From Deltaproteobacteria bacterium (GTDB lineage Bacteria > Desulfobacterota > Binatia > UTPRO1), in contig JADYZW010000035.1 in NCBI GenBank assembly GCA_020852955.1, positions 26,024 through 90,023 on the forward strand: a DNA stretch of 64,000 nucleotides. The letters are read 5' to 3'. Of the stretch, positions 19,004 through 35,150 are shown in pieces. Within the stretch, counting starts at the first letter, position 1; each line of letters begins with the position of its first letter. The notes beneath the pieces were generated by a model. That model saw only the letters and a program-made list of their open reading frames with translations, was not told where the DNA came from and made no database searches. The translations under genes were made by a program, and so were the position numbers.

Positions 19004-20830
19004 TCAGCCGCGGACGAGGCGCACGAGCCGGCGCTCACCGGCGGCGAGGTCGCGGAACACCAGGCGCAGGCCGCCGTCGGCGCCGCCCACCGCCACCACC
19101 GCCGGGGCCGCGCCTCGCACCGCTTCCACGGACCAGCCCGCGCTCGAATCCGCGAGGTAGACCACGACCCCGAGCTCGGGGGTCGCGGCGCCGCTCGCGA
19201 GCTCCACCGTCACCGCGCCGTCGCCCGCCCGGGCGACGCGCGTCGCCGCCCGCGACCGCGTCCGCCACCACGCCGCCACCTCGCCGACGGTCGCGAGCCA
19301 CACGCCGGGCAGGTTGCGGAGGCCCGTCAGGTGCCGGACCCCGGTGCGGATCGCCGGCGCGTTCCAGAACTGCGTATGGAAGTCGAAGAAGTAGAACCCT
19401 CCGACGCGTCGCACCTGCTCGAGGTCGCTCCGCATGGCGGCCCAGGACGCGCCGACATCCCTCCCGTCGCGTCGCACCACGTACTCGAAGTCGTCGTGCG
19501 GAACGCGCGGGAGCACCACGATCGCCTTGCCGCCGCTCTCGAGCACCCACGGCTCCGCACGGTCCTTGTCGCGCCAGCCGATGATCCAGTGGTAGCCGGT
19601 CGCAGCGAGCGCCGCGAGGGTATCGCCGTTCGTCCGCTCCTCCGGCGGCCGGAGACCGATCACGGTGCGGCCGGTGAGCGCCGCCAGGATCGCCCGGCTC
19701 TCGACGAGCTGGGCGCGCTGCTCGTCCTCGCTCTGCTCGTCGAGCGGCCGGTGGTCGTGGGTGTGCGACGCGATCTCGCTCGCCGCGGCGAGCGCGCGCA
19801 GCGTCTCGGGATGGTCGCCGGCGACCGTGGTGAGCACGAAGCTCGTGAAGGGCACGTTCGACGCGGCGAAGCGCGCGGCGATCGGCCCGCCGGCCGCGAA
19901 CTCGTGCTCGGCGTCGAGCCCGATGGCCGCGGCGGCGCGCGCCCCCCGCGGCCACGTCTCCAGGTCGCCGAGCGGACGCCCGCCGGCCCAGGCGAGCGCG
20001 TTCGCGACCAAGCGATCGACGCGCGCCGCCGCAGCGCCGCCGCCGACCACCGCTCCCGGCTCGAAGTTCAGCCACACCACTCGCCCGCGCCCGTGCACGG
20101 CGCGCGCCACGGCGGTCTGTGGCGCCGGCGCGGCCGGGTCGCGGGCGAGCATCGACCAGTCCACGAACTCGCCGACGGCCGCGTCGGTCGTGAGCGGCAG
20201 CGGCCGGTCGTAGGGCTGGATCTCGATCCGCGCGCCGGCCGGGATGCCGGCGGTGACGCTCGTCCGGCCGTGCAGAGCGACGTAGCGCGGCGCTTCGGCG
20301 GCGTCGGCCCCGGCGAGCGCGCGCACGCCGACGAGGGCGGCGAGCGGGGCATAGCCGCGCCACGCCCCGTCAGCGCCGTACAGGCCGTACGTCCAGGTCG
20401 CAACGAGGCCCGCGCCGCCCTCGACCGCCGCGGCGAGCCGCGCCACGGTGTCCTCGTGCAGCGCCGCGGCCGACGGCGCGACGACGACGGTCCCGGCCCC
20501 GAGCGCGCTCGCGAGCGCGGTTTCGTCGACCACGCTCGCCCGTCCGCCCGCGGCGTCGATCCGGCGGCGCCAGGCCTCGATGCGGCGATCGTACGCATCC
20601 GGATCGGCCCCCGGCACGTCCGCGAAGTGGCGCGCCGTCGCCTCGGCGCGCAGCAGCAGCACGGTCGGTCTCCCGCCGCCGTCCTCGGCGGTCGAGAGCG
20701 CGGGCGGCGGCAGCGCCGCGACGCCGTTCTCCTCCCCGCGTCCGCGCGTGATCAGGACGAACACCAGCACCGCCGAGGCCGCGACGGCGACCGTGAGCGC
20801 GACGGCGAAGAGCGCGCGCAAGCCCCGCAT
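19004..20830 (-). CDS. polysaccharide deacetylase (NodB-type) with N-terminal uncharacterised domain, membrane-anchored
   Basis: MRGLRALFAVALTVAVAAS anchor. A NodB domain lies in the C-terminal half (GLDAEHEF, HTHDHRP, RPPEERTNG). It is the last gene of the EPS operon. Confidence 0.75.
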   Translation of the reverse strand: MRGLRALFAVALTVAVAASAVLVFVLITRGRGEENGVAALPPPALSTAEDGGGRPTVLLLRAEATARHFADVPGADPDAYDRRIEAWRRRIDAAGGRASVVDETALASALGAGTVVVAPSAAALHEDTVARLAAAVEGGAGLVATWTYGLYGADGAWRGYAPLAALVGVRALAGADAAEAPRYVALHGRTSVTAGIPAGARIEIQPYDRPLPLTTDAAVGEFVDWSMLARDPAAPAPQTAVARAVHGRGRVVWLNFEPGAVVGGGAAAARVDRLVANALAWAGGRPLGDLETWPRGARAAAAIGLDAEHEFAAGGPIAARFAASNVPFTSFVLTTVAGDHPETLRALAAASEIASHTHDHRPLDEQSEDEQRAQLVESRAILAALTGRTVIGLRPPEERTNGDTLAALAATGYHWIIGWRDKDRAEPWVLESGGKAIVVLPRVPHDDFEYVVRRDGRDVGASWAAMRSDLEQVRRVGGFYFFDFHTQFWNAPAIRTGVRHLTGLRNLPGVWLATVGEVAAWWRTRSRAATRVARAGDGAVTVELASGAATPELGVVVYLADSSAGWSVEAVRGAAPAVVAVGGADGGLRLVFRDLAAGERRLVRLVRG

Positions 20831-20838
20831 CCGCCGCC

Positions 20839-21039
20839 TCAGCTCCGGGGAGCGAGCGATGCGCCCGGCGCGTCGGGGAGGCCGAGGCGCACGAAGAATA
20901 CCTTGCGCGCCGGGTCCTGCGCCGCGCGCGGCTGCCGCTTCTCCCGCACCCGGAACGCCAGATACGACAGCACGCCGAGCACGAGCGTCGACAGCGTCGC
21001 GATCAGCACGATGGTTGCGAGAATCGGTACGAGGTCCAT
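20839..21039 (-). CDS. small single-TM membrane protein (IcaD/PgaD-position analogue)
   Basis: 66-aa ORF with one hydrophobic helix (LVPILATIVLIATLSTLVLGVLSYLAF) and a basic tail. It is wedged between the GT2 and deacetylase genes with 8- and 33-nt gaps. Confidence 0.4.
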   Translation of the reverse strand: MDLVPILATIVLIATLSTLVLGVLSYLAFRVREKRQPRAAQDPARKVFFVRLGLPDAPGASLAPRS

Positions 21040-21072: not shown

Positions 21073-22401
21073 CTAGCCCGACAGGCGTCCGAGGCGCTCG
21101 AGCTTTCCCCATCCCATGCGCACGCCGGCGATCTCCTCGAAGGTGGCGAGCACTTTGCAGATGTCGATCAGGAGGATGTAGCTCATGCGGTAGACGATCG
21201 AGTACGGCACGAGCCGCAGATCCTCCTTCTCCGCGGCGGCGCTGAAGAGCGCGCCGATCGCGTCGAGCAGCGTCAGCTGCAACCACCAGAGCGCCAGCAG
21301 CCGCGTCGTCCCGTAGCGCACCGCGACCAGCAGGAAGAACGCGTTCGCGAAGACGTTCATCGCCGGCCACAGGACCGCCTCGAACATCATGTAGGCGATC
21401 GTCACGCGCGTCCCGAGGCGCGGCCCGGAGGCGACGAGGAGGCCGACGTGCCGGCGCAGCGCCTGCAGGATGCCGCGCGTCCAGCGGTAGCGCTGCTTGA
21501 GGAGCGCCGGCAGCCGCTCGGGCGCTTCGGTGTACGCGATCGCGCGCGGCTCGTACTTGATCTTCCAGCCTTCTCCCAGGAGCTGGAGCGTCAGGTCGCA
21601 GTCCTCCGCGAAGGTGGCGGTCGAGTATCCCCCGGCCGCCAGCACGGCGTCCCGGCGGAAGATCCCGAGCGGTCCGGGCACGATATTGACGGTGCGGAAG
21701 AACGCCTGCGCGCTCCGCATCAGGTTCAGGCCCTCGACGTACTCGAGCGCCTGCAGCCAGGTGAGCAGATTGCGGCGGTTCACCACTTTCACGTTGCCCG
21801 CGACCGCGACGACGTGGGGATCGGCGAAGTGCCGCATCCCGGCGCGCAGGCTCATCGGCGCCACGTGGGAGTCCCCGTCCACGCACATCACGAACGCGCC
21901 GCGCGCCTCGCGGAGGCCTCGGTTCAACGCCGCCGCCTTGCCGCCGTTCGACTGCGAGACGACCCGCACCTCGACGCCGCGCGTCCGTTGCGCCTCGTCG
22001 CAGGCGCGCCCGTAGGTGTCGTCGGTCGAGCCGTCGTCCACGACGACGATCTCGAGGTTCGGGTAGTCGAGCGCGGCGAGCGAACGGATCGAGCTCTCGA
22101 TGCAGACGGACTCGTTGAACGCCGGCACCAGCACCGAGACCAGCGGCGCCGCGGGATCGACCTCGGGATCGCCCAGACTCTCGAGGTGCCCGAGGAACGC
22201 GAACCACAGCATGACGAAGTAGCGAACGATCAGGAGCACGAGGAAGCAGAGCAGGGCCGACACCGAGAGGCTGACGATCGCGTTGTCGATCGCGTAGTCC
22301 TCGCGCAGCACGGAGACGTAGAGCGCGATCGCGCCGATCACCACGCCGACGCACGCCGTCACGAAGAGCAGCGGGAACATCCCGGGACGCTGCCGGCTCA
22401 T
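21073..22401 (-). CDS. processive family-2 glycosyltransferase (PgaC/IcaA-like poly-beta-1,6-GlcNAc synthase type)
   Basis: 442 aa. It has N-terminal TMs, the DDGS(TDDT) and DGD motifs and QRYRW (QxxRW). Its start overlaps the stop of the upstream TPR/porin gene by 4 nt. Confidence 0.85.
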   Translation of the reverse strand: MSRQRPGMFPLLFVTACVGVVIGAIALYVSVLREDYAIDNAIVSLSVSALLCFLVLLIVRYFVMLWFAFLGHLESLGDPEVDPAAPLVSVLVPAFNESVCIESSIRSLAALDYPNLEIVVVDDGSTDDTYGRACDEAQRTRGVEVRVVSQSNGGKAAALNRGLREARGAFVMCVDGDSHVAPMSLRAGMRHFADPHVVAVAGNVKVVNRRNLLTWLQALEYVEGLNLMRSAQAFFRTVNIVPGPLGIFRRDAVLAAGGYSTATFAEDCDLTLQLLGEGWKIKYEPRAIAYTEAPERLPALLKQRYRWTRGILQALRRHVGLLVASGPRLGTRVTIAYMMFEAVLWPAMNVFANAFFLLVAVRYGTTRLLALWWLQLTLLDAIGALFSAAAEKEDLRLVPYSIVYRMSYILLIDICKVLATFEEIAGVRMGWGKLERLGRLSG

Positions 22402-24563
22402 GAGGCCCCGAAGCGGTACCGGACCGCGATCGTCCCGCTGTGGGCGACGTAGCCGCCGCCGTTCCCGCCGCCGACGCTGCCGACGCGGCCGGTCTCTCCG
22501 TACCGGTACCCGAGCTCGGCGGTGAGACCGGCGACCTCGGCGAGCGCGAGGCCGACGCCGACGCTGCGCTCGAGCGAGCCCTGCCCCTCCTCCTGCCCGT
22601 ACCCCACGCGCGCGTCGAGCTGGAGCGTCACGCTGGGCGCGATCTCCTGCCGGACGATCGCGCTCAGCCCCTGCGTCAGATAGCGCGCCGGGTCCCAGTA
22701 GAGATCGCTGCGCTCCGCGTAGTCGAGATAGCCGGCATCGGCCTTCACGGTGACGCCCGGCTTCCGCAGCACCCGGCGTGCGAGCGACGCCTGCAGCGCG
22801 ACGAGGCGATTGCCGTCGCTGTACCCGGAGACGCTGCCGGCGCCGGCGAGCTCGAGACGTCCCGGCAGCACGTGCCGCCCCTGCGCGCGGAGGCGATGGC
22901 CGCTCAGCACGCGCCGATCGGCCGACGCGACCGTGAGCACCTCGTCGATCAGGTCGTAGTGGTCGTAGGCGACGCCGACCTGGCTCTCCGGCCCCAGCAC
23001 GCGCGTCAGCTCGACGGTCGCGCCGTGGGTCGTCCGGTCCTCGTCGTAGACCGTCGGCGCCCAGACCGCGCCGAGCCGCCAGCGATCGTCGAGGTCGCGC
23101 AGCAGGCTGAAGCGCCCGCGGTCGGCGCGGAGCTTCACGCCGTGCTGCGCGTAGTCGGTATGGACGATCGCGGCCCCGACCTCGGTGGCGAGCCCGTGGC
23201 GCTGCCGTGCCTCGACCGTCACGCGCCGCTGCCGGAAGCCGTCGGAGTCCTGCACCGCGCCGAAGGTCGGCAGGCCCTCGGCGACGCCGCTCTCCGCGGC
23301 GAGGGCCTGCGCCGCCGCTCGCGCGTCCTCGTCGTCGCCGCCGAGCCGCACCGCCGCCCGATAGTGGCGACCCGCCGCCGCGCGCGCGCCGCCCCAGCGA
23401 TAGACGTCGCCGAGCATGCGCTCGGCGCGGCCCGGCGCGGCGCCGCGCGCCGCCGCGATCTCGCGGGCGCTCTCGGCGAGCTGCCCGTCCCAGGCGAGCA
23501 CGCTCGCGCGCTCGAGCCGGAGCTCGAGATCGGACGGCGCGGCGCCGACCAGCTCCTCGTAGACGCCGAGCGCGCGTCCGTAGCGTCCGGCCCAGGAGAG
23601 CGTGCGGGCGAGCTGTCGCCGCGTCGTCGCGTCGTCGGGGCGGCGGCGGAGCTGTGCGTCATAGAGCGTGATCGCCGCGTCGAAGTCGCCCTGCTCCGCG
23701 AGCGCCGCGGCGAGCGCCGTCCGCGCCTCGCCGTCCTCCGGGCGGGCCGCGAGCGCCGCACGCGCGGCGGCGACGCGCGCGGCGTTGCGTGCCGCGCGTT
23801 CCGCGCGCAGCGTCGCTGCGCGGCCCCGGAAGCGGCGGTCGCCCGGCCAGCGCCGGCGGGCATCCGCGAGCAGCGTGTCGGCGAGGGCGAACTGCTCGGC
23901 GGCCGCCGCCGCGTCGACGGCGACGGCCCAGCGCCCGGCGTCCTCGGGATGCGCCCGCCGCTCGGCGTCGGCCGCGAGCGCGCGGTGCGCGGGCGAAGCG
24001 AGGAGCGCGGCGAGCGCCTGCCGGGCGTCGGAACGCTGAGGATCGGCCGCGAGCGCGGCCCGCAGGGCGCGCTCCGCATCGCCGAGCCGCCCGCTCCATT
24101 GCAGGGCGAGTCCGAGCCCGAGGAACGCGCCGGCGTCGCCGGCGTCGGCGGCGACGAGCGCCTCGTACTCCGCGATCGCGGGCACGAGCGCGCCGCGCCA
24201 GGCCCGGACGTCGGCGCGCGCCTTGTGGAGGGCCCGGCGATCAGTGCCGGTGCCGCCGCCCGCGAGCAGCCGATCGTACTCGGCCTCCGCGCCGGCCAGA
24301 TCGCCGGCCTCACTCAACAAGCGGGCGAGCTCGACGCGGACGGCGCGGTCGCCGGCATGCGGCGCGAGCCACGCGCGATAGAGGGCGACCGCATCCGGCA
24401 GCCGCCGCGCCAGGTAGCAGGCGCTCGCGCGCGCCAGGGTGGTCGCGCGGTCGCGGAGCGGCGGCCGCGGATCGCAGGGCTCGCCCGCGAGCGCGGGGGA
24501 ACGCCAGGAGAGGAGCGCCAGGACGACCGCCGTCCCGACGCGCCGTCGGATCGAAGCGCGCAT
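22398..24563 (-). CDS. TPR-repeat outer-membrane polysaccharide export protein (PgaA/BcsC/PelB-like)
   Basis: Signal peptide, then about 400 aa of TPR-like Ala/Leu/Arg-rich repeats. The roughly 290-aa C-terminal region alternates amphipathic beta-strand patterns consistent with a porin barrel. Confidence 0.6.
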   Translation of the reverse strand: MRASIRRRVGTAVVLALLSWRSPALAGEPCDPRPPLRDRATTLARASACYLARRLPDAVALYRAWLAPHAGDRAVRVELARLLSEAGDLAGAEAEYDRLLAGGGTGTDRRALHKARADVRAWRGALVPAIAEYEALVAADAGDAGAFLGLGLALQWSGRLGDAERALRAALAADPQRSDARQALAALLASPAHRALAADAERRAHPEDAGRWAVAVDAAAAAEQFALADTLLADARRRWPGDRRFRGRAATLRAERAARNAARVAAARAALAARPEDGEARTALAAALAEQGDFDAAITLYDAQLRRRPDDATTRRQLARTLSWAGRYGRALGVYEELVGAAPSDLELRLERASVLAWDGQLAESAREIAAARGAAPGRAERMLGDVYRWGGARAAAGRHYRAAVRLGGDDEDARAAAQALAAESGVAEGLPTFGAVQDSDGFRQRRVTVEARQRHGLATEVGAAIVHTDYAQHGVKLRADRGRFSLLRDLDDRWRLGAVWAPTVYDEDRTTHGATVELTRVLGPESQVGVAYDHYDLIDEVLTVASADRRVLSGHRLRAQGRHVLPGRLELAGAGSVSGYSDGNRLVALQASLARRVLRKPGVTVKADAGYLDYAERSDLYWDPARYLTQGLSAIVRQEIAPSVTLQLDARVGYGQEEGQGSLERSVGVGLALAEVAGLTAELGYRYGETGRVGSVGGGNGGGYVAHSGTIAVRYRFGAS

Positions 24564-24572
24564 CTCCCGATC

Positions 24573-26243
24573 TCAGGCGACGACCTGCTTCGCCGCCCCC
24601 TCCTCCCGCCCGAGCGCGCGCGCCAGGTTCTCCAGCAGCTCGTCGATCGTGGCCCCGTCGGTCGAATAAGCGGCGGTCGCGGCGCGGAAGCCTACGAGCG
24701 TCCGTCCGACGCCCCGGCCGCGCCCCGCGAGCCAGTCCTGCAGGCGGGCCGCGAGCGCCGCGACGTCGTCCGCGCTCGCGCCGAGCGCCACGACCGCGAT
24801 CTCGGTCGCGTGCAGCCAGCAGAGGATCTCCTGTCCGGCGAGGACCTCCGGGAAGTCCTGCGGCGTGAGGGCGACCGGACCGGCCGCGATCACCTCGCCA
24901 TTCGCCTCGAACCCGAAGCGGGCGACGAGGAGCGCGCAGCGTTCGGTCGCCTTCAATGCGGCGGCGACGCAGTCCCGCAGGAACAGCGCGAACGGATCCC
25001 GCAGGCGGAGCGCTCCGCCGGCCGTGGCCACGAGCCCGGTGACCTCGTCCTCGGCGCTCGCCATCTCGACCGCGATGTGGCGGCGCAGCTCCTCGAGCTC
25101 ATCGTATACGTGCGGCGCCGCCTCGGGGTCGACGGTCACGAGCCCGGTGCCGAACGCGATGCGAAACGGTCGGCCTTCCGTCGGCGCCGTCACGCCGTGC
25201 ATGCGCTCGAGCTTGAGCGTGCCCGTCTGCCGGCCGTTCGTCTCCGAGCCGAGGATGAGCGTCCCGAACGACGCGCGCTTGAGGTAGGCGTTGGCGAGCT
25301 CCTCCTGCGGCGTCACGGGGTCGTCGGAGAGGACGAGCGTGGTCGCGCCGGTGCGCTCGAGCCCGTCGACGAGATCCGTCATGAGGGGCGCCGACAGCAC
25401 CAGCCGCGGCGCCGAGCAGAGGATGGTCAGGACCGAGTTGATGACGATGCGCGTCGCCCGGCACTCGGCAGCGTAGCTCGCGATCTCGGCGGCGAGCGCG
25501 ACGACGTCGTTGCGCGTCTCGAGCGCGTACTCGAAGCGCTCGGCGAGCCCCACGACCACGAGCTTCCCCGACCGTATGTGCGGCCGGAGATCGAGACCGA
25601 CGCTGCTGCCGACGTAGAGCACCGTGTCGACCCGCTCGGTCGTCACGAGCACCGCGCCGTCGCCGCGCTCGAGCGCGCGGTGCAGGAACTGGACGGCGAA
25701 GACCCCCTTCGCCCCGCCGCCCGCGCCCTGCCCGAGATAGACGCGGCCGCGGCAGAGACCGCCGACCTGCTCGTCGAGCGGCGCGATGCCGGTCGGCTCG
25801 AAGTCGAGCGGTCGCGGACCCTCGGCGGTCGGCGCCGCCCGCGGCGTGACGGCCCGGACGCGACGGAGCTCGGCATAGCGGCGCAGGGTGCCGCTCACGG
25901 TCGCGAGGAGCTGCTTCGCCGTGAACGGCTTCACGAGATAGTGCTCGACGCCGAGCCGATTGCCGCGCTCGAGGCTGGTCGCATCGCCGAGCGCCGACAG
26001 GAAGATGACCGGCACCGCGAGGAGCCGCGGATCCTCGCGCATGCGCTCCAGCAGGCGGTAGCCGTCGACCTCGGGCATCATGATGTCCGACACGACGAGG
26101 TCCGGGACGACGCTCTGCAGCTCCGCGAGCGCGCTGACGCCGGAATCGGCGGCGCTCACCTGGTAGCCCTCGCGCTCGAGAATGCGCGAGGCGAGGAGCC
26201 TCACCTCATCGGAATCGTCGACGACCAGGATGTGGGGACGCAT
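24573..26243 (-). CDS. response regulator with KaiC/RecA-like (pseudo)ATPase domain and GGDEF-like C-terminal domain
   Basis: REC domain (ILVVDDSDEV...VVSDIMMPEVDG...LVKPF). A KaiC-like domain follows whose Walker A is GQGAGGGAKG, lacking the Ser/Thr after Lys. The C-terminal region contains a degenerate RFGFEANGE, compared with the canonical RYGGEEF. It lies 9 nt upstream of the exporter gene. Confidence 0.75.
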   Translation of the reverse strand: MRPHILVVDDSDEVRLLASRILEREGYQVSAADSGVSALAELQSVVPDLVVSDIMMPEVDGYRLLERMREDPRLLAVPVIFLSALGDATSLERGNRLGVEHYLVKPFTAKQLLATVSGTLRRYAELRRVRAVTPRAAPTAEGPRPLDFEPTGIAPLDEQVGGLCRGRVYLGQGAGGGAKGVFAVQFLHRALERGDGAVLVTTERVDTVLYVGSSVGLDLRPHIRSGKLVVVGLAERFEYALETRNDVVALAAEIASYAAECRATRIVINSVLTILCSAPRLVLSAPLMTDLVDGLERTGATTLVLSDDPVTPQEELANAYLKRASFGTLILGSETNGRQTGTLKLERMHGVTAPTEGRPFRIAFGTGLVTVDPEAAPHVYDELEELRRHIAVEMASAEDEVTGLVATAGGALRLRDPFALFLRDCVAAALKATERCALLVARFGFEANGEVIAAGPVALTPQDFPEVLAGQEILCWLHATEIAVVALGASADDVAALAARLQDWLAGRGRGVGRTLVGFRAATAAYSTDGATIDELLENLARALGREEGAAKQVVA

Positions 26244-26389
26244 GCACGCTCCTCTCCGCCGGCTGTATCGACACTCGCCGTCCCATCCTTGAGAAACCCG
26301 CGATCCGCCGTCGCGCACGCGCCACCCGGCATGCGACCTCGCACGCGATCGCTTGACAGGCGCCGGGCGGCAGGCGCGAATGCGCGCCC

Positions 26390-26968: not shown

Positions 26969-28015
26969 TCACCCCCTGCCGCGGGGGGTCGGGACCGGAT
27001 GCGAGGCGCGCGACGGCGGCTCGGAGCCGCATGCCGGCGTCCCGGGCTGCAACCCCGGGATCCGCTCCCGGTCGATCACCGCGAACAGCTCGTTCGGCCG
27101 CGCGAACGAGCGGAATAGCCCGTCCATGACGGCCGCCTGCGTGCGATGAGTCGCGAGCGCGGCGAGCTTCGTGCGCACCTGGGACGGGTCGAGGGGTAGC
27201 GAGAACCACCGCCCCGGCGCGAAGAGCGCCGCCGGCTCCGGCAACGGCCCCGGGGCCTCGGGCGGCGGAGGCCAGCCCCGCGCCGTGTGCACCAGGTACG
27301 TCAGCAGGCGATCGGGCATCCTGCCGGCGCCGCCCGGCTCGACGGCGAGCGACTTCAGCGCCGCGAGCACGAAGGTGAAGGTCGCGCAGTGGTCGGGGTG
27401 GTGGTCGAGCGGCGTCGGCAGCACGATCCAGTCCGGATCGGCGAGCGCCACCACGCGCGCGATCAGGTGGACCAGGTCGCGGCTCAGGTAGCGCGCCCCC
27501 GCCTCCCACGCGTGCGGATACGGCGGAGTGTCCTCGCGGGTGTAGGGCGACTCGTAGGGGGGGACGTGGGGCCCGCGCCGCCAGATCTCGGCGAGGCCGC
27601 CGTCGGGAAAGCCGAGGAACGTGACCGACAGGGGCAGCACGCGGTAGTGCTCGAGCGCGACGAGCGCCTCCGCGCGCCGCAGCTCGCCGACGCCGCGATA
27701 GTCGCTCGCCGACGGCTCGCGATGCCCCGTCGCCGCCTCGACGGCCTCCGGGTAGCCGTCGCCGTTCGTCACGAAGAGCACGTGGACGCGCCCGCCGGCG
27801 GCGACCACCTGCTGCATCAGCCCCCCGGCCCCGAGCGACTCGTCGTCGGGATGCGGCGCCACCACCAGCACGCGGACGCGCGGCGGGACGACGAGCGTCT
27901 CGGCCGCGCGCGCCGCGGGAACGGCGAACCGCGCGAGCACGGCCGCGAGCGCGGCGGCCGCCGCGCGGCGACGGAAGGCGGGAGGCAGTCCGAGCACGAC
28001 CGACCCTCGTAGCAC
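26969..28015 (-). CDS. PIG-L/LmbE family N-acetylglucosaminyl deacetylase, secreted
   Basis: HPDDES and HHPDH motifs. A predicted signal peptide (RRRAAAAALAAVLARFAVPAARAAE) is present. The upstream ATG at 28111 would overlap the divergent oxidoreductase start by 2 nt, so a GTG start near 28015 or 27997 is preferred. This start is not certain. Confidence 0.65.
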   Translation of the reverse strand: MLRGSVVLGLPPAFRRRAAAAALAAVLARFAVPAARAAETLVVPPRVRVLVVAPHPDDESLGAGGLMQQVVAAGGRVHVLFVTNGDGYPEAVEAATGHREPSASDYRGVGELRRAEALVALEHYRVLPLSVTFLGFPDGGLAEIWRRGPHVPPYESPYTREDTPPYPHAWEAGARYLSRDLVHLIARVVALADPDWIVLPTPLDHHPDHCATFTFVLAALKSLAVEPGGAGRMPDRLLTYLVHTARGWPPPPEAPGPLPEPAALFAPGRWFSLPLDPSQVRTKLAALATHRTQAAVMDGLFRSFARPNELFAVIDRERIPGLQPGTPACGSEPPSRASHPVPTPRGRG

Positions 28016-28109
28016 CGCGCCGCCGACCCGGCCACCATCGCGGCGCGCGGCGCGCCTTCCCGCCCCGGGCGTCGCCGTGCTAGGCCGCCGGGAAGAAAGG
28101 GGAGTCGCC

Positions 28110-30350
28110 ATGCCGACCACGACGAGCCTCCTCACCTGCCCGCTCTGCGAAGCGACCTGCGGCCTCAGCGTCACGACGAACGGCCGGACGGTCGAGGACA
28201 TCCGCGGCGATCGCGCCGACGTCTTCAGCGCCGGCTATCTCTGTCCGAAGGCCTACGCGATGAAGGAGCTCGAAGCCGATCCGGACCGCCTGCGGACGCC
28301 GCTCGTCCGCCGCGCCGGCCGCCTCGTCCCCGCGACCTGGGACGAGGCCTGGGAGGAGGTCGAGCGCGGCCTCGGCGCGGTGCTGCGCGACCACGGACGC
28401 GACGCCGTCGCGGTCTACCTCGGCAACCCGAACGCCCACCACCTCTCCGGGCTCTACGCGCCCGCGCTCATCAAGGCGATCGGCACGCGCAACGTCTACT
28501 CCGCGAGCACCCTCGACCAGATGCCGAAGCAGGTGTCCGCTGGCCTCATGTTCGGCGGCGCGCTTTCGATCCCGGTTCCCGACCTGGACCGCACCGACCA
28601 CCTCCTGGTCCTCGGCGCCAACCCCCTCGCCTCGAACGGCAGCTTGATGACCGCGCCCGACGTGAAGGGGCGCCTGCGGGCCCTGCGCGCGCGCGGCGGC
28701 ACGCTGGTCGTGGTCGATCCCCGCCGGAGCCTGACCGCGCTCGACGCGGACGCGCACCATTGCATCCGTCCGGGGACCGACGCCCACCTGCTCTTCGCGC
28801 TCGTTCATGTGCTCGTCGCCGAGGGCCGCGTCGCGCTCGGCCGCCTCGCCGAGCACGCGGCCGGACTCGCCGAGGTCGAGCGCCTCGCCCGTCCGTTCAC
28901 GCCCGAGGCGGTCGCGAACGTCACCGGCCTCGACGCCGCCGCCATCCGCGGCCTCGCGCGCGATCTCGCGCGGGCGCGCCGGGCCGCCGTCTACGGCCGC
29001 ATCGGCACCTGCACCCAGGAGTTCGGTACGCTCGCGAGCTGGCTCGTCGACGTCCTGAACGTCCTCACGGGCAACCTCGACCGCGAGGGCGGCGCCATGT
29101 TCCCGAAGGCGGCCGCCGGCGCCAAGAACACGACCGGCGCCCCGGGCGTCGGCCGCGGCGTCCGCTTCGGGCGCTTCGCGAGCCGCGTGCGCGGGCTGCC
29201 GGAGGTGTACGGCGAGCTCCCGACGTCGGTGCTCGCCGAGGAGATCGACACCCCCGGCGACGGCCGGATTCGCGGGCTCGTCACGGTCGCCGGCAATCCC
29301 GTCCTGAGCGCGCCGAACGCGGGCCGCCTGCGCGCCGCGCTCGCCACGCTCGACTTCATGGTGAGCGTCGACATCTACCTGAACGAGACCACCCGCCACG
29401 CCCACGTCGTCCTCCCGGCCCCGTCCGCGTTCGAGCGCTCGCACTACGACGTCGCGCTCTACCAGCTGGCCGTGCGGAACGTCGCCCACTACTCGGCGCC
29501 CGTGTTCCCGGTCTCCGACGGCATGCGCGACGAATGGCAGATCCTGCTCACGCTCGGCGCCATCGCGAGCGGCCTGGGCCGCGGCGCCGACGTCGCCGCG
29601 CTCGACGATTTCCTCGTGCACCAGGTGGTCGCACGCGAGGTGGAGACCCCGGGCTCGCCCGTCGAAGGCCGCGACCCCGCCGAGCTGATCGCGGCGCTCG
29701 GCGCGCGCCGGGGGCCGGATCGCGTGCTCGACTTCCTGCTGCGCAGCGGCCCGTACGGCGACGCCTTCGGCCGTCGCGAAGGCGGCGTGAGCCTCGATCT
29801 GCTGGAGCGCCATCCGCATGGCGTCGATCTCGGCCCCCTCCGGCCGCGCATCCCGGAGGTCCTCCGTACTCCGAGCGGCAAGATCGAGCTCGCGCCGCCC
29901 CCGCTGGTCGCCGACGTCGCGCGCCTCGCGGCCACGCTCGACCGCGCGCCCGCGCCGCTCGTGCTCGTCGGCCGGCGCACGCTCCGCTCCAACAACTCGT
30001 GGATGCACAACCTCGACGTCCTCGTGAAGGGCCGCCCGGCGTGCACCCTGCACGTGCATCCCGACGACGCCCGCCGCCTCGGCCTCGCCGACGGCGGCGC
30101 GGCGCGCGTGCGCTCGCGCGTCGGCGCGCTCGAGCTCCCGGTCGAGGTGACCGACGGCATCATGCGGGGCGTGGTGAGCATTCCGCACGGCTGGGGCCAC
30201 GACGACCCCGCGAGCGCCCTCCGCGTGGCCGCGGCGCACGCCGGCGCCAACGCGAATCTGCTGGCGGACGACGCGGCGATCGATCCGCTCTCGGGTAACG
30301 CCGTCCTGAGCGGCATTCCGGTCGCGGTGGAACCGGTGCCGCCCGCATAG
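28110..30350 (+). CDS. molybdopterin-dependent oxidoreductase (BisC/NasA/FdhF-like, monomeric)
   Basis: N-terminal 4Fe-4S motif CPLCEATCG...C. Several MopB molybdopterin-binding domains span about 746 aa. The MPTTTSLLTCPLCEATCG start is typical of this family. Confidence 0.85.
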   Translation: MPTTTSLLTCPLCEATCGLSVTTNGRTVEDIRGDRADVFSAGYLCPKAYAMKELEADPDRLRTPLVRRAGRLVPATWDEAWEEVERGLGAVLRDHGRDAVAVYLGNPNAHHLSGLYAPALIKAIGTRNVYSASTLDQMPKQVSAGLMFGGALSIPVPDLDRTDHLLVLGANPLASNGSLMTAPDVKGRLRALRARGGTLVVVDPRRSLTALDADAHHCIRPGTDAHLLFALVHVLVAEGRVALGRLAEHAAGLAEVERLARPFTPEAVANVTGLDAAAIRGLARDLARARRAAVYGRIGTCTQEFGTLASWLVDVLNVLTGNLDREGGAMFPKAAAGAKNTTGAPGVGRGVRFGRFASRVRGLPEVYGELPTSVLAEEIDTPGDGRIRGLVTVAGNPVLSAPNAGRLRAALATLDFMVSVDIYLNETTRHAHVVLPAPSAFERSHYDVALYQLAVRNVAHYSAPVFPVSDGMRDEWQILLTLGAIASGLGRGADVAALDDFLVHQVVAREVETPGSPVEGRDPAELIAALGARRGPDRVLDFLLRSGPYGDAFGRREGGVSLDLLERHPHGVDLGPLRPRIPEVLRTPSGKIELAPPPLVADVARLAATLDRAPAPLVLVGRRTLRSNNSWMHNLDVLVKGRPACTLHVHPDDARRLGLADGGAARVRSRVGALELPVEVTDGIMRGVVSIPHGWGHDDPASALRVAAAHAGANANLLADDAAIDPLSGNAVLSGIPVAVEPVPPA

Positions 30351-30382: not shown

Positions 30383-33300
30383 CTACTTGCAGGCCAGCTT
30401 CGAGGCCCCGGCCGTACACGACGGCACCGACGGCGGGACGAGGAAGCGCACCTCGCCGCACTGATCGGTCCCCGGCATGGCCCCCGGCGGATTGCCGGTA
30501 TCGTTGAGCTCGATGGCCACCGTGATCGGCGACTCGCCCGGCGCGAGCGGATAGCTGCCCCGATCGCCGGTGATCGCGAACGTGACGAGGCCCGGCACCT
30601 TCGCCGACTTGTCCGTCACCACCACCTTCTTGATACCGTTCTGGGACGGCGGCGTCGAAGCCTTGTCCTGGTAGGTGAACTTGCTCGGCGGCGAGCCGGA
30701 TACCTTCCAGCCGACGGGATCCGCCGCGCTATAGATCCCGGCGGGCACGTGTTGGTCAACGACCACGGCTCCGGTCGGCCCGAGCACGCGCAGGTGGATG
30801 CCGCGCGCCTGCGGCGCGATCGGCGAGCCCCCGTTCGGGACGGTGATGGCGCCCGAGATCTTCAGCTTCTGGACCCCCGGCGCCTCGCCGAGCTTGGCGA
30901 ACACCACCTTCGGCTTGATCCAGTCGCCGGCCGTGCCGGGACGCGAGCACGGGTCGCCGGTGCCGATCGCGGGCGGGCGCGCGACCGCGCCGATGCAGTA
31001 GCCGTCGTCGTCGCTGTCGTTGTCGACGTCGGCGGGGCACCGATCCTGCGCCGTGCAAACCCCGTCGCCGTCGGGATCGACGAGCCGGCAGAGCGTCGTG
31101 CAGCACTCGTCGGCCCCGTTGGCGGCGCCGTTGTCGCACTCCTCCCCGCTGTTCTGGACGCCGTTGCCGCAGGCCTCGAGCCGGCAGAGCTGGTCGCAGC
31201 CGTCGCCCGGAACGGTGCCGCCGTCGTCGCACTGCTCGCCCGGATCACGGAAGCCGTCGCCGCAGGTCGCCGGAGCCTCGCGCGTCGAGGGCACGCACAG
31301 CAGCGTCGCCTTCTGCGCCTGCAGGGTCTCGTCCGCGAACTCGTTCGACGCCTGCAACAGGCGCTTCACGAAGGGCCCCTGCCCCGACGCCTGCCGGATC
31401 TTGTAGCAGTGGATCTGCGCGGCGGGGCTGATCGCCGGCACCCCGTCGACGTCGGTCGTGTTGCAGACGCTCTCGGGCTCCAGCACCGTCGCGAGCTTCT
31501 CCTCGAAGACGTCCTGCAGGTGCGCGCTCACCGCGGCGAACTTCGGCGCGCCGGAGGGCGTCTTCGCCGTGTAGCACTTGAAGCGGTCGAGGTTGGGCGC
31601 CGCGGGCGCGCCGGCGTTCCCGGCCGGCACGCAGAGGCGCTTCGCCTTCTTCAGGGTGAGATCCTGACCGCTGCCGAACTCGTTGTCGATCGTCTCGGTG
31701 CTCGACGCGAAGCGCGCCTGCCCGGGAGCGTCCTTGATCTGGTAGCACTGGAGGTGGGCGTTCGGGTCCTGGATGCCCTGCCCGTCCTTGTCGACCGCGT
31801 TACAGAACTCGCTCGTCTTGATGACCCGCGTGCTCTTGGTCTCGACGCCGTCGGCGAGCGTGACGCTGCGTTCGACGAAGGCGGTCGAGCCGGAGGCCTT
31901 CGCGGCCTTGTAGCACTTGTAGTGATCCACGACCGCCGCGGCGGGCGTAGACGTCGCGGTCGGCGTGACGGTCGCGGTCGCGGTGACCGTCGCGGTGCGG
32001 GTCGGCGTGGGCGTGCGGGTGGCGGTCGCGGTGGCGAGCGGCGTCGCCGTCGCCGCCGTGCTCGTCGGCAGGACGGGTGTCGCCGTCCGCGTGCCGAGCG
32101 GAGTCGCCGTGCGGCTCGGGGTCGGCGTCCGCGTCGCGGTCAGCGTCGGCGTCGCCGTGACCGTCGGACACAGGAACTGCGAGCAGGTGGCGTTGCAGCA
32201 CGCGCCGTCGGCGGCCGCGCCCTTGTCGCACATCTCCCCGACCTGGCGGACGCCGTCGCCGCAGACGGGGCAGTTCGGAAACGGACCGCTCGCGACGGGG
32301 TTGTCGATGCGCGCGGGATTGAAGACGACCCCGCCGCCGATCACCGGGTTCACGCCGGGGAGATGGCTGGTCGTGATCGTGCCGCCCGGCGGGGCGACGT
32401 ACTGCGAGCCGCCCCCGAGCTGCATGGCCCGGCGCGAGACGAGCTCCACGTCGGACCCGCCCGGCAGGTTCGTGATCGGGTTCACGCCGCCGGTGCCGTC
32501 GATCTTCACGTTCGACGCGACGCTCACGCCGCAGCCGATGAGCGAGATGCTCTGCCCGCTGCCATGGCCGGTCCCGCTGGTAGCGACGATGTTCTTCTGC
32601 AGCGACAGGATGCCGCTCCCGCCCTCGTCGCTCGCGAGGCCGGCCTCGAGGTCGACGAAGCCGCCTTCGCCGTCGGCGCTCGTGCCGCGCGTCGTGACCA
32701 CGCCGTTCACCGTCGCCGCGCGGCCCGCCGCCATGAGCACGTCGCCGCCGCTGTCCGTGCCGCTGTTGTCGAGCGCCCCCGTGAAGATCAGGTCGCGACC
32801 GGCGCTGAGGTCGAAGCTGCCGCCATCGCCCCCGATGGCGCCGCTGTTCATCGAGATCACGCCGCCGATCTCGAGGTCGCCGTCGAGCGCGCCGAGCACG
32901 TTCGGGTTGAGGTCGCCGCTGTCCATGGTGACCGCGCCGCCGGAGCCGTCGAAGTTGGTCGCCGCGTCGACCCGGACGACCATGCCGGCGCCGAAGAAGC
33001 GGATCCGACCGGCGGCGAGAACGTCGAGCTCCCCGCCGTCGCCGCCGAACGTGTCGGTCGCGCTGCCGCGCATCAGCAGCGACGCGCCGTTCACGTCGAT
33101 GCCACCGCCGAGGACGCTGCCGCCGAGGAAGTCCTCGCCGGCGTCGAGGGAGATGTAGCCGCCGAAGCCGCCGCCGACCGTACTGTCGGCGTAGATGCCC
33201 CCATTCACGATCGAGATGGCGTCGCCCACGGTGGCGCTGAACTCGCCGCCGTCGCCGCCGCCGCCGTTCACGTTGATCGGCCGGGTGATGGTCAGATTCC

Positions 33301-33982
33301 CGCCCGCCGTGAAGTCGCAGACGCCGCCGGTCCCGGCGTTCTGGCCGGAGAGGTTGATGTCGCCGCCGATCGTGATGCTCCCGTCCTGGGCGACGACGTC
33401 GAGCTCGCCGCCGTCGGTGAAGCGGTCCCCGAGATCCGCGAAGCTGCTCATGCCGGGCCCGTCGATCACCGCACCGGGCTGCAGCACGACGTCCTCGGCC
33501 GCCACCAGGCGGATGGTGCCGGCCGAGTCGCCGGCCACGTCGATGTTGCCGTCGATGTCGATGGTGCCGGTGCTGGCAAGCGACACGACGCCGCCGCCGA
33601 TGATGAATCCGTTCGGCTTCACGAAATCGCCCCGCGCCTTCAGCTTGCCGGTCGACGTGATCGTGATGTCGCCCGCGTTGATCACCCGGATGAAGCCGAG
33701 CCCCGTCATCTGGAAGGTCTTCTCGATGCTGAGGGCGCGCCCGCCGAGATCGAACTCGCACCCGCCAGCCGTGACCTCGATCGCCGTGGTCATGCGGACC
33801 AGCGTCGCGGAGCACACCCCCGTTCCGCAGAGCACGTTCGTCGTGTTGGCGAGGGCGTCGACCCCGCAGGTCCGGGCGACCGCGGACGCGCGGGTCGGCG
33901 CGGCGAGGATCGCGGCCGCGACGGCGGCGAGCAGCAACAGCGCGGGACGCCCGGACGACCGGGGCTCGTGGTTGGGATTCAC
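30383..33982 (-). CDS. giant secreted/cell-surface protein (Gly-rich beta-helix repeats, Myxococcus Cys-rich repeats, tandem KCY domains)
   Basis: Predicted signal peptide ([27 protein letters not shown]), with a GTG start chosen at VNPNHE. There are about 600 aa of GGxGGDGG-type repeats, a [18 protein letters not shown] Cys-rich repeat, a PT-rich linker, and two roughly 105-aa repeats (DHYKCYK..., DRFKCYT..., ...HCYKIRQ). Further CGDGF...EQCDDGG / CGNGV...EECDNG repeats and a C-terminal domain follow. Confidence 0.7.
31935..32170 (-). repeat. coding Pro/Thr-rich low-complexity repeat (TPT/TRT units)
   Basis: Encodes [22 protein letters not shown]...[26 protein letters not shown] on the minus strand. 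It is the same family as 18538..18874. Confidence 0.7.
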
Positions 33983-34145
33983 GACATGCGCTCCTTCCAG
34001 ATAACGCGAAGACTCCGATGCAGAGAGGCCGGAACGCGGATTATGCGGGCAGGGCAAATCCCCGGTCAAATGGAAATCTTCGGCGGCCGCGGCGGCTTGA
34101 GCGGCCGGGGCGCGGCGCGTATGAGCGGTAGCGCGAGGCGGCACC

Positions 34146-35150
34146 GTGGAGAGCGCACCGAAGCCAGACTTTCGCATCGTGTTCCGGGCTGCCAGCCTTC
34201 TGAACTCGTCCCTCGACCTCGACGTCGTCCTGCGCGAGCTCCTGGACGGCCTCGACCGCCTCCTGCGCCCGACCCATTGGTCGCTGCTGCTCCGCGACGA
34301 CGCGACGGGCGAGCTCGTGTTCACGCTCGTCCGTGGCGACGCCCACCCGCAGCTCCTCGCACGCCGCCTCGCACCGGAGGAGGGCATCGCGGGCTGGGTC
34401 GCGAGCCACGACGAAGCGCTCCTGATCCCCGACGTCGCCGCCGACCCGCGCTTCTCCGCCCGCATGGACACGCTCTCGGGCTTCCGCACCCGCTCCGTCG
34501 TGGCAGTGCCGCTCAGGGCGCGGGCCCGCTGCATCGGCGTCCTCGAGATCGTGAACGCCATGCACGAGCGGGTCTTCGACGCCACCGACCTCGAGATCCT
34601 GCAGAGCTACGCCGACTTCGCCGCCATCGCCATCCACAATGCCCGCACCCACGAGGCGATCGTGGAGCTCGCCAAGAACGATCCGCTGACGGGCCTGCGA
34701 AACTCCCAGTACTTCATTCGCGCCATCGAGGAAGCCATCGCGCGCGGCGGGCGCTTCGCGATCGTGTTCTTCGACATGGACCGCTTCAAGCGGCTCGTCG
34801 ACACGCACGGCCACGTGCGGGGCAGCGCCGCCCTCGCGGAGGTCGGCCGCTGGCTCGGCGCCGAGCTCGCGCCCGGCGAGGTCGGCTGCCGCTTCGGCGG
34901 TGACGAGTTCGCGCTCCTCTTCGCCGGTGCCGACCGCGCCGCGGCCGACACCCGCTGCCGGGATCTCGCGACCCGACTCCTCGCCCGCACGTTCCTCGAC
35001 GACGAAGGCATCCACGCGACGCTTGGCGCCTCCTTCGGCGCGGCGGCGTTCCCGGCCGACGGCGGCACGCCAGCTGCGCTCCTCCATCTCGCCGACGAGC
35101 GCATGTACGCGTCGAAGCGCGCGCGGCAGCTGGCGCGGCGCGCCGACTGA
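34146..35150 (+). CDS. GAF-domain diguanylate cyclase (GGDEF)
   Basis: N-terminal GAF domain, then a GGDEF domain with an intact RFGGDEF active-site motif and an upstream I-site-like RxxD. The track ORF begins with GTG, so the start is uncertain. Confidence 0.8.

Follow-up and report, generated by a model that had tools for sequence, protein, structure and literature searches.

A response regulator joining an intact receiver to predicted KaiC-like pseudo-ATPase and degenerate GGDEF-like domains is linked to a PNAG-like synthase operon in Binatia

Introduction

To our knowledge, the synthase-dependent exopolysaccharide (EPS) systems, such as those for cellulose, Pel, alginate and poly-N-acetylglucosamine (PNAG), are almost always described as licensed by cyclic di-GMP (c-di-GMP). 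PelD, PssE and YdaK are anchored in the membrane, have neither receiver (REC) nor KaiC domains, and require an intact RxxD inhibitory site (I-site). BcsE contains a KaiC-modelled RecA-like domain with a decayed Walker A motif, together with receiver and GGDEF domains that are both degenerate; the protein oligomerizes via its RecA-like domain, which also co-purifies with NusE/S10, and its recruitment to the membrane depends mostly on the small protein BcsF (PMC7439463). Fusions of REC to KaiC-like and inactivated KaiC (iKaiC) domains are known in archaea (PMC5847659). Here we describe a 556-residue response regulator encoded in a 64,000-nucleotide stretch (hereafter the window; positions 26,024 to 90,023 of contig JADYZW010000035.1) from a Deltaproteobacteria bacterium of the Binatia. 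The regulator combines an intact REC domain with a predicted KaiC-like pseudo-ATPase and a degenerate GGDEF-like domain, and it is encoded at the head of a conserved PNAG-like synthase operon. We estimate the probability at roughly one half that its output is protein-protein interaction, not catalysis or DNA binding, such that the protein would act as a post-translational scaffold switch of the PNAG-type synthase.

The comparison with BcsE is the most instructive. Both are cytoplasmic regulators encoded in a synthase-dependent EPS locus and assembled from the same three folds, and the 66-70-aa single-pass protein encoded in the operon described here recalls BcsF, a single-pass membrane partner of approximately 63 aa. 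The domains are, however, differently ordered, with BcsE running from a degenerate RecA-like domain through a degenerate REC to a degenerate GGDEF domain and the regulator from REC through a degenerate KaiC-like domain to the degenerate GGDEF-like domain. In addition, REC is degenerate in BcsE but intact in the regulator; the BcsE GGDEF domain keeps an RxxD I-site and binds c-di-GMP, whereas the regulator has AGQE at that position; the BcsQ and BcsR partners of the cellulose system are not present with the regulator; and the synthase is BcsA in the cellulose system but PgaC-like here. Alignment of family profiles against E. coli BcsE with hhalign yielded a probability of 0.1-0.3%, and Pfam gave no PF10995 match. 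Homology with BcsE was rejected as not demonstrable, given that hhalign found nothing. By analogy, BcsE is nevertheless the closest functional analogue; the regulator lies outside the BcsE family and may work alike.

Three further comparisons place the regulator among known proteins. With PleD and WspR it shares an active N-terminal REC and, as in WspR, a stalk helix before the GGDEF fold; in contrast, the middle module of PleD is a pseudo-receiver where the regulator has a KaiC-like domain, and PleD and WspR are active cyclases with a GGEEF motif and an I-site, both of which are lost in the regulator. With the archaeal iKaiC proteins it shares the use of a single KaiC-family RecA-fold domain as a signalling module fused to REC, but the archaeal KaiC-REC proteins have other domain orders and partners (KaiC-REC, HalOD1) and none is reported with a GGDEF-like domain or an EPS operon. 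Like PelD, PssE and YdaK, the regulator has a degenerate GGDEF domain and its gene accompanies those of a polysaccharide machine, while the RxxD I-site that these proteins need is absent from the regulator.

Results and discussion

A three-domain regulator with an intact receiver

Pfam identified PF00072 at residues 5-116 (93.6 bits against a cutoff of 30.2, E=1e-26) and PF06745 at residues 150-366 (76.3 bits against a cutoff of 26.6, E=3e-21), and gave nothing significant for the last 185 residues, where a GGDEF fold emerged from AlphaFold2 (AF2) modelling and Foldseek. As predicted from sequence and structure models, the domain order is REC, KaiC-like pseudo-ATPase and degenerate GGDEF-like domain. 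This is the architecture proposed in an earlier sequence-only reading of the locus, and Pfam, profile search, AF2 and Foldseek all bear it out, including the placement of the middle domain in the RecA superfamily by a hidden Markov model. That reading also considered the architecture not to be well described. Our literature searches agree, in that they turned up neither a REC, KaiC-like, GGDEF-like protein nor this operon, and nothing relevant on EPS regulation in Binatia; REC-KaiC fusions (PMC5847659) and BcsE (PMC7439463) are the known neighbours. The AF2 model of the whole protein has a mean predicted local distance difference test (pLDDT) score of 83 and a predicted template-modelling score (pTM) of 0.50, and its best full-length structural matches are PleD structures, colinear over approximately 580 alignment columns (Foldseek, E=2e-17). 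In this model the regulator reads as a PleD/WspR-like protein with a KaiC-like middle adaptor and a dead cyclase.

Conservation is expressed throughout as the top-residue frequency over a 31-member homologue alignment, with the six commonest residues given per column. Conservation is highest in REC, with a mean of 0.80 that rises to 0.92-0.94 across beta5-alpha5 (residues 97-127). The active site is complete, with D9/D10, D53, S83, Y102 and K105 all present and D10, D53, Y102 and K105 invariant; the acidic pocket and phospho-acceptor Asp had been recognized from the bare sequence, and by alignment REC is shown to have all the residues needed for phosphorylation. In a distant paralogous clade (36% identical, P0186), a HisKA-HATPase_c kinase is encoded directly upstream of the regulator (L092 8220-9572; L093 1055-2329). 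No histidine kinase was detected in the 64-kb window, and the regulator of this clade is therefore an orphan.

The KaiC-like domain keeps its fold and has lost its catalytic residues

The assignment of the middle domain by Pfam is matched by a phmmer hit of the regulator to KaiC (8zn5, E=2e-20), and in the AF2 model the domain superposes on KaiC CI with a template-modelling (TM) score of 0.81-0.83 and a root-mean-square deviation of approximately 3 Å (Foldseek). The domain is single, compared with the tandem CI-CII of circadian KaiC. No kai gene appears among the surrounding gene calls and Pfam assignments, though no search aimed at KaiA or KaiB was made. When the KaiC-like domain was used by itself in a word-index search, the matches were 7 fragments from this family and nothing else, which is uninformative on the nearest outside relatives of the domain.

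The closeness of this fold to KaiC CI raises the possibility that the domain is a working ATP or GTP switch that may hydrolyse nucleotide slowly or phosphorylate itself, like ArlH or KaiC, and that nucleotide state together with REC phosphorylation drives hexamer assembly. The P-loop offers this idea some encouragement, as K179 is kept in 28 of the 31 sequences and G173 and G176 in 30, and distant clade members (P0033, P0040, P0127, P0132 and P0185) keep a canonical GxxGxGK[ST]. The loop of the regulator itself is nonetheless decayed. Residues 171-180 read GQGAGGGAKG, without the Walker A Ser/Thr, as had been pointed out from sequence alone, and the possible catalytic loss suggested on that basis is backed by the homologue columns. 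Relative to KaiC GTPGTGKT, the sixth-position Gly has become Ala and the Thr has become Gly. The Ser/Thr column holds G 15, S 5, A 3, T 3, Q 2 and N 1 (Ser or Thr in 8 of 31) and the column of the Gly preceding the Walker A Lys holds G 15, A 13 and V 3, while the loop tolerates a one-residue deletion in four sequences, replacement of the Lys by Q, R or A in three of the 31, and outright erasure in P0121. Its conservation, at 0.60, falls below the KaiC-like domain average of 0.74.

The remaining catalytic elements also tell against a nucleotide switch. The Walker B strand, RVVIDS in KaiC, is RIVINS in the regulator, and its Asp column reads N 13, S 6, T 4, G 4, A 2 and D 1, so that Asp is missing in 30 of 31; it is also absent from all the distant members examined (P0127, P0128, P0132, P0185 and P0186). 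The catalytic Glu pair of KaiC (VTFEE) corresponds to VTTER, where position 203 stays acidic but the second Glu is an Arg, R204, that is 100% conserved. Just after the Walker B strand lies a family motif in which R280, L281 and S284 are likewise 100% conserved and C276, S277 and P279 are 94-97% conserved. A predicted pseudo-ATPase, with the fold kept and the Walker A Ser/Thr and Walker B Asp lost, is well supported by these alignments, and we regard a functioning nucleotide switch as improbable. R204, R280, L281 and S284, together with R413 and W476 of the C-terminal domain, are new invariant residues, which argue for a retained, different function.

The C-terminal domain is a divergent GGDEF homologue without a canonical c-di-GMP site

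Standard family searches barely register the C-terminal domain. PF00990 gave no match to the regulator at E<=0.1, and a Pfam scan of the C-terminal domains of 29 members returned sub-threshold GGDEF or GGDEF_2 matches only, with PF00990 in 2 of the 29 at E>=0.069. A profile built from 29 C-terminal sequences was more informative, as its best biological matches in the PDB were the GGDEF proteins 4yme (E=0.002), ImcA (8wcn) and LapD (3pjw). An exhaustive search with the C-terminal profile against 1.84 billion representative proteins yielded 65 proteins at E<=0.001, which beyond the family itself are ordinary cyclases (PF00990 in 48 of 56 scanned). The AF2 model of residues 372-556 (pLDDT 88, pTM 0.83) has the topology long helix, hairpin, then alpha-beta-alpha-beta-beta-alpha-beta-alpha. 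All 50 of the PDB matches listed by Foldseek are GGDEF domains (probability 0.77-1.0, TM 0.34-0.53), headed by a leucine-zipper/WspR-GGDEF fusion, the best match among solved structures, ImcA, FimX and phytochrome cyclases, among which those with coiled-coil linkers also rank high. Four independent lines of sequence and model evidence show the domain to be a very divergent GGDEF homologue.

Residue equivalences were fixed by a MAFFT alignment with 9 canonical cyclases and by HMMER alignments to 4yme and 8wcn. The earlier reading had taken RFGFEANGE as the counterpart of the RYGGEEF of GGDEF cyclases, an assignment that these alignments do not sustain, since this string coincides with strand beta1 and the true position is HATEI at residues 478-482. 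The RFGFEANGE region is also the least conserved in the domain, at 0.40. At the true position the family pattern is W-x-x-x-x-[ED]-[LIV], and distant members carry remnants of the ancestral motif, namely HGDEL (P0186), GGTDL (P0127) and GDGDL (P0049), which support descent from a real cyclase. The canonical DxDxFKxxND...GHxxGD segment is represented by ARFGFEANGE and a variable loop with a deletion, and LLxxADxALYxAK by LLENLARALGRE; at the DxD, ND, GD and K/R positions the residues of canonical cyclases are either substituted or missing. By the MAFFT alignment, the active-site (A-site) residues affected include the metal-binding Asp, the base-binding Asn/Asp and the phosphate-binding Lys/Arg.

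These losses bear directly on the proposal that the domain is a c-di-GMP receptor of the PelD, BcsE, PssE or YdaK type that integrates phosphorylation with c-di-GMP to license polysaccharide synthesis. Degenerate GGDEF domains in synthase-type EPS operons are typically such receptors (PMC7439463 and established knowledge), the GGDEF-like fold is supported by AF2 and Foldseek, and the domain has conserved arginines at R413, R415, R423 and R500. Known receptors, however, bind through RxxD, five residues before the GGDEF position, where the regulator has AGQE and the Arg column holds A 19, G 5, S 4, T 2 and Q 1, with Arg in 0 of 31; canonical c-di-GMP binding therefore lacks support. The residues aligned with A-site positions are replaced as well, and Pfam revealed no PilZ or other known c-di-GMP module in the operon proteins. 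A protein with GAF and canonical GGDEF domains is encoded approximately 8 kb from the regulator gene (window 34125-35147, plus strand; PF00990 E=5e-27), which gives the organism the domains that c-di-GMP synthesis requires. The proximity of this cyclase would suit a receptor, but its gene lies outside the conserved operon at other loci. On balance a c-di-GMP receptor is unlikely, and the c-di-GMP binding suggested by the sequence-only reading is not supported.

The regulator heads a conserved PNAG-like synthase operon

The regulator is near-invariably linked to a PNAG-like synthase operon, being the first gene of a conserved five-gene operon in every sufficiently long locus except one. The gene calls on the source contigs place behind it a 710-730-aa tetratricopeptide repeat (TPR) protein, an approximately 440-aa PgaC-like family 2 glycosyltransferase (GT2), a 66-70-aa protein and an approximately 607-aa family 4 carbohydrate esterase (CE4) deacetylase, the last present at L001, L084, L085 and L092. 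The five genes keep their order amid unrelated flanks with homologues of 47-52% identity (P0044 and P0047), and also with the 36%-identical paralogue P0186. At the exceptional locus, L083 (P0040, 51-53% identity), the order is kept through the 66-aa gene, but the second gene lacks a Pfam match and the gene calls include no deacetylase. Among the most distant members, P0127 and P0132 are on short contigs, where the next gene encodes a TPR protein and overlaps the regulator stop codon. The spacing in the window, in operon order, is a 9-nt gap, already noted in the earlier reading, an ATGA overlap between genes 2 and 3, a 33-nt gap and an 8-nt gap. The link to polysaccharide synthesis and export that was first suggested by this adjacency has a stronger foundation in the gene order conserved across loci.

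The four downstream genes recall PgaABCD and IcaADBC, with a TPR envelope protein, a PgaC/IcaA-like GT2, a small membrane protein encoded beside the synthase and a CE4 deacetylase; unlike this operon, Pga systems have no dedicated response regulator. Gene 2 had been described as an EPS exporter, of which only a signal-peptide TPR protein is confirmed. NCBIfam gave weak PgaA, BcsC and PrsT TPR matches, whereas the match of the C-terminal 300 aa to the PgaA barrel is insignificant (E=0.047) and no PDB match extends beyond the TPR region. The GT2 encoded by gene 3 has TIGR03937 (PgaC_IcaA) as its best NCBIfam match, at 193 bits below the cutoff of 422, and among PDB entries it is related to hyaluronan, cellulose and chitin synthases. 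The gene 4 protein, which has no Pfam family above threshold, is 50-58% identical across 5 loci (66-70 aa), with an invariant S-Y-x-A-F-x-x-R-E-x-R, a shared FFVR tail in which F48 and R51 are invariant, and the basic tail SYLAFRVRERRRP; by analogy, it resembles BcsF or PgaD in role. PgaB carries a second glycoside-hydrolase domain, and the gene 5 deacetylase shows no such domain.

A phosphorylation-gated scaffold as the proposed mechanism

In the scaffold switch that we favour, D53 would be phosphorylated by a histidine kinase, unlinked in this clade and adjacent in the paralogous one, and the effect of phosphorylation would be relayed by the alpha4-beta5-alpha5 face of REC, which is highly conserved. 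The KaiC-like scaffold, with the new invariant R204 and the CSxPRLxxS motif, would then change its oligomeric state or exposure, as the stalk-plus-GGDEF-like module would change state too, and the complex would dock on the synthase from the cytoplasm, with the GT2 itself or the basic tail of the small membrane protein as the site of contact. Docking would switch the synthesis and export of an N-acetylglucosamine-type polymer on or off after translation, with phosphorylation instead of c-di-GMP as the input. By analogy, the regulator would thereby do what is done in the cellulose system by BcsE and BcsF, in the Pel system by PelD and in the PNAG system by PgaD with c-di-GMP. The earlier proposal of a checkpoint combining phosphorylation with a second messenger survives in its first half, as a phosphorylation checkpoint is the best reading; the second-messenger half is rather unlikely with the I-site and A-site lost.

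Several observations weigh against this reading. The inter-domain geometry is uncertain in the AF2 model (pTM 0.50), and the fourth GGDEF position stays acidic, with E or D in 31 of 31. The conserved arginines R413, R415, R423 and R500 could form a non-canonical ligand site, and the canonical P-loop of distant members means that nucleotide binding may matter in part of the family; with K179 kept in 28 of 31, the regulator itself may bind nucleotide weakly. On ENA contig_53947 a window-clade copy has no operon downstream, although this copy is a truncated one of 374 aa. A separate challenge is the possibility that the regulator controls expression of the operon, for instance by acting on the machinery of transcription or translation, in the way suggested for the N-terminal domain of BcsE with Nus factors, or by sequestering another regulator. 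The position of the regulator as first gene of its operon and the co-purification of the BcsE RecA-like domain with NusE/S10 (PMC7439463) both speak for such a role, and pre- and post-translational control fit the data alike. Against it, neither Pfam nor NCBIfam finds a DNA- or RNA-binding domain in the regulator, being co-transcribed with its targets is more in keeping with a stoichiometric partner than with a transcription factor, and the conserved small membrane protein suggests membrane docking. Expression control is the least probable of the three alternatives considered here.

It is conceivable, though doubtful at present, that Binatia arrived independently at a BcsE-like regulator for a PNAG-type synthase by combining these three folds, with phosphorylation replacing c-di-GMP as the licensing signal and the dead KaiC-like domain forming a ring or filament platform beneath the synthase, anchored by the 66-aa protein. 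If this were true, the triad of RecA/KaiC-like, REC and GGDEF domains would be a recurrent solution for gating synthase-dependent EPS machines. The family itself provides a second, unrelated example of the combination found in BcsE, with its degenerate RecA-like and GGDEF domains. It also suggests direct two-component control of an EPS machine through a scaffold of dead enzymes, and it offers a natural series of pseudo-enzyme evolution, in which Walker A runs from canonical to erased and the GG[DE]EF position from HGDEL or GGTDL to HATEI across clades.

Gene start and coordinates

The open reading frame (ORF) list places the regulator in a minus-strand ORF spanning 26318 to 24573, in a window with approximately 70-77% G+C throughout. 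The ATG at 26243 is the right start because GGAGAGGAG precedes it and the homologue N-termini agree, MRPHILVVDD or a close variant being the N-terminus in most of 30 aligned homologues. The 556-aa product is identical to database protein P0001, 'response regulator [Deltaproteobacteria bacterium]'. Coordinates of the regulator, its motifs and the operon genes are collected in Table 1.

Table 1. Features of the regulator gene and its operon, in window coordinates.
Feature	Position	Strand	Basis
Response regulator coding sequence, 556 aa	24576..26243	(-)	ORF list and exact database match; stop codon TGA 24573-24575
Shine-Dalgarno-like GGAGAGGAG	26249..26257	(-)	Read from sequence; 5 nt before ATG at 26243
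REC receiver, residues 5-116, phospho-acceptor D53	25896..26231	(-)	PF00072 E=1e-26
Variable linker, predicted disordered, residues 129-148	25800..25859	(-)	pLDDT <50 for 132-144; conservation 0.49
KaiC-CI-like RecA-fold domain, residues 150-366, predicted catalytically dead	25146..25796	(-)	PF06745, phmmer, Foldseek
Decayed Walker A, G173-A-G-G-G-A-K-G180	25704..25727	(-)	Compared with GxxGxGK[ST]; KaiC alignment GTPGTGKT
Walker B strand RIVINS, Asp to Asn269	25434..25451	(-)	KaiC: RVVIDS
Family motif C276-S-x-P-R280-L-x-x-S284	25392..25418	(-)	Just after Walker B strand; invariant or nearly so
Stalk helix, residues 379-396, before last domain	25056..25109	(-)	AF2 secondary structure
Degenerate GGDEF-like domain, residues 401-545	24609..25043	(-)	Profile search, AF2, Foldseek, alignment
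RFGFEANGE, residues 442-450	24894..24920	(-)	End of strand beta1 and start of variable loop; aligns with DLDRFKVLND
I-site position A469-G-Q-E472, not RxxD	24828..24839	(-)	Alignments to canonical cyclases
True GG[DE]EF position H478-A-T-E-I482, beta2-beta3 hairpin	24798..24812	(-)	HMMER and MAFFT alignments
Gene 2, 721 aa, signal peptide and TPR; candidate outer-membrane export/scaffold protein	22398..24563	(-)	TPR Pfam matches
Gene 3, 442-aa processive GT2, PgaC/IcaA-like	21073..22401	(-)	TIGR03937, Pfam GT2 families
Gene 4, 66-aa single-pass membrane protein, conserved basic tail	20839..21039	(-)	Translation; between GT2 and deacetylase
Gene 5, 608-aa CE4 polysaccharide deacetylase	19004..20830	(-)	PF01522 E=5e-16

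Distribution of the family and neighbouring genes

The family is small, comprising 49 clusters at 90% identity, with near-full-length or fragmentary matches, and about a dozen representatives at 50% identity. The taxon names given are solely 'Candidatus Binatia' and 'Deltaproteobacteria bacterium' metagenome-assembled genomes; Binatia are uncultured. A search with a profile of the KaiC-like domain plus C-terminus recovered the family itself only (49 proteins) and no other architecture. A contig scan with the full-length alignment was swamped by ordinary receivers, the 80 loci kept matching little beyond REC; one seemingly longer match, L016, turned out to be a REC-LuxR regulator. The 299-aa protein P0129 (L090 1065-1964) pairs REC directly with this degenerate GGDEF-like domain, the KaiC-like insert being absent, and may be an ancestral or reduced family form. 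It lies on a 3-kb contig with no polysaccharide operon adjoining.

Both paralogues occur in one genome, on the 140-kb contig_53947 (L092 12984-14179 and L094 10001-11125). The distant paralogue there has a full operon, in which the TPR gene is split by an IS110-family transposase. The truncated, operon-less copy in L094 may reflect decay or an assembly error, and its locus is syntenic with the window, with PIG-L and Ser_hydrolase genes upstream.

In the window, the upstream neighbours of the regulator are a Ser_hydrolase gene (PF06821; 26390-26947, plus strand), a PIG-L-family deacetylase gene (26969-28201, minus strand) and a molybdopterin oxidoreductase gene (28077-30350, plus strand). These are syntenic only in the close relatives L001, L002 and L094, are absent beside distant homologues, and are probably unrelated to the operon. 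The longest ORF at window positions 30383-34585 (minus strand) encodes 1400 aa, with a true start that is probably internal; its product appears to be secreted, with beta-helix-like Gly/Asp-rich repeats, Thr/Pro/Ala linkers and Cys-rich repeats towards the C-terminus. Upstream of the regulator in the most distant members (P0127; L087 297-7885 and L088 729-4294) there are glycan genes as well, those beside P0127 encoding a GT2-methyltransferase fusion, an F5/8-type-C lectin-like protein and a PMT_2/GT87-like membrane glycosyltransferase.

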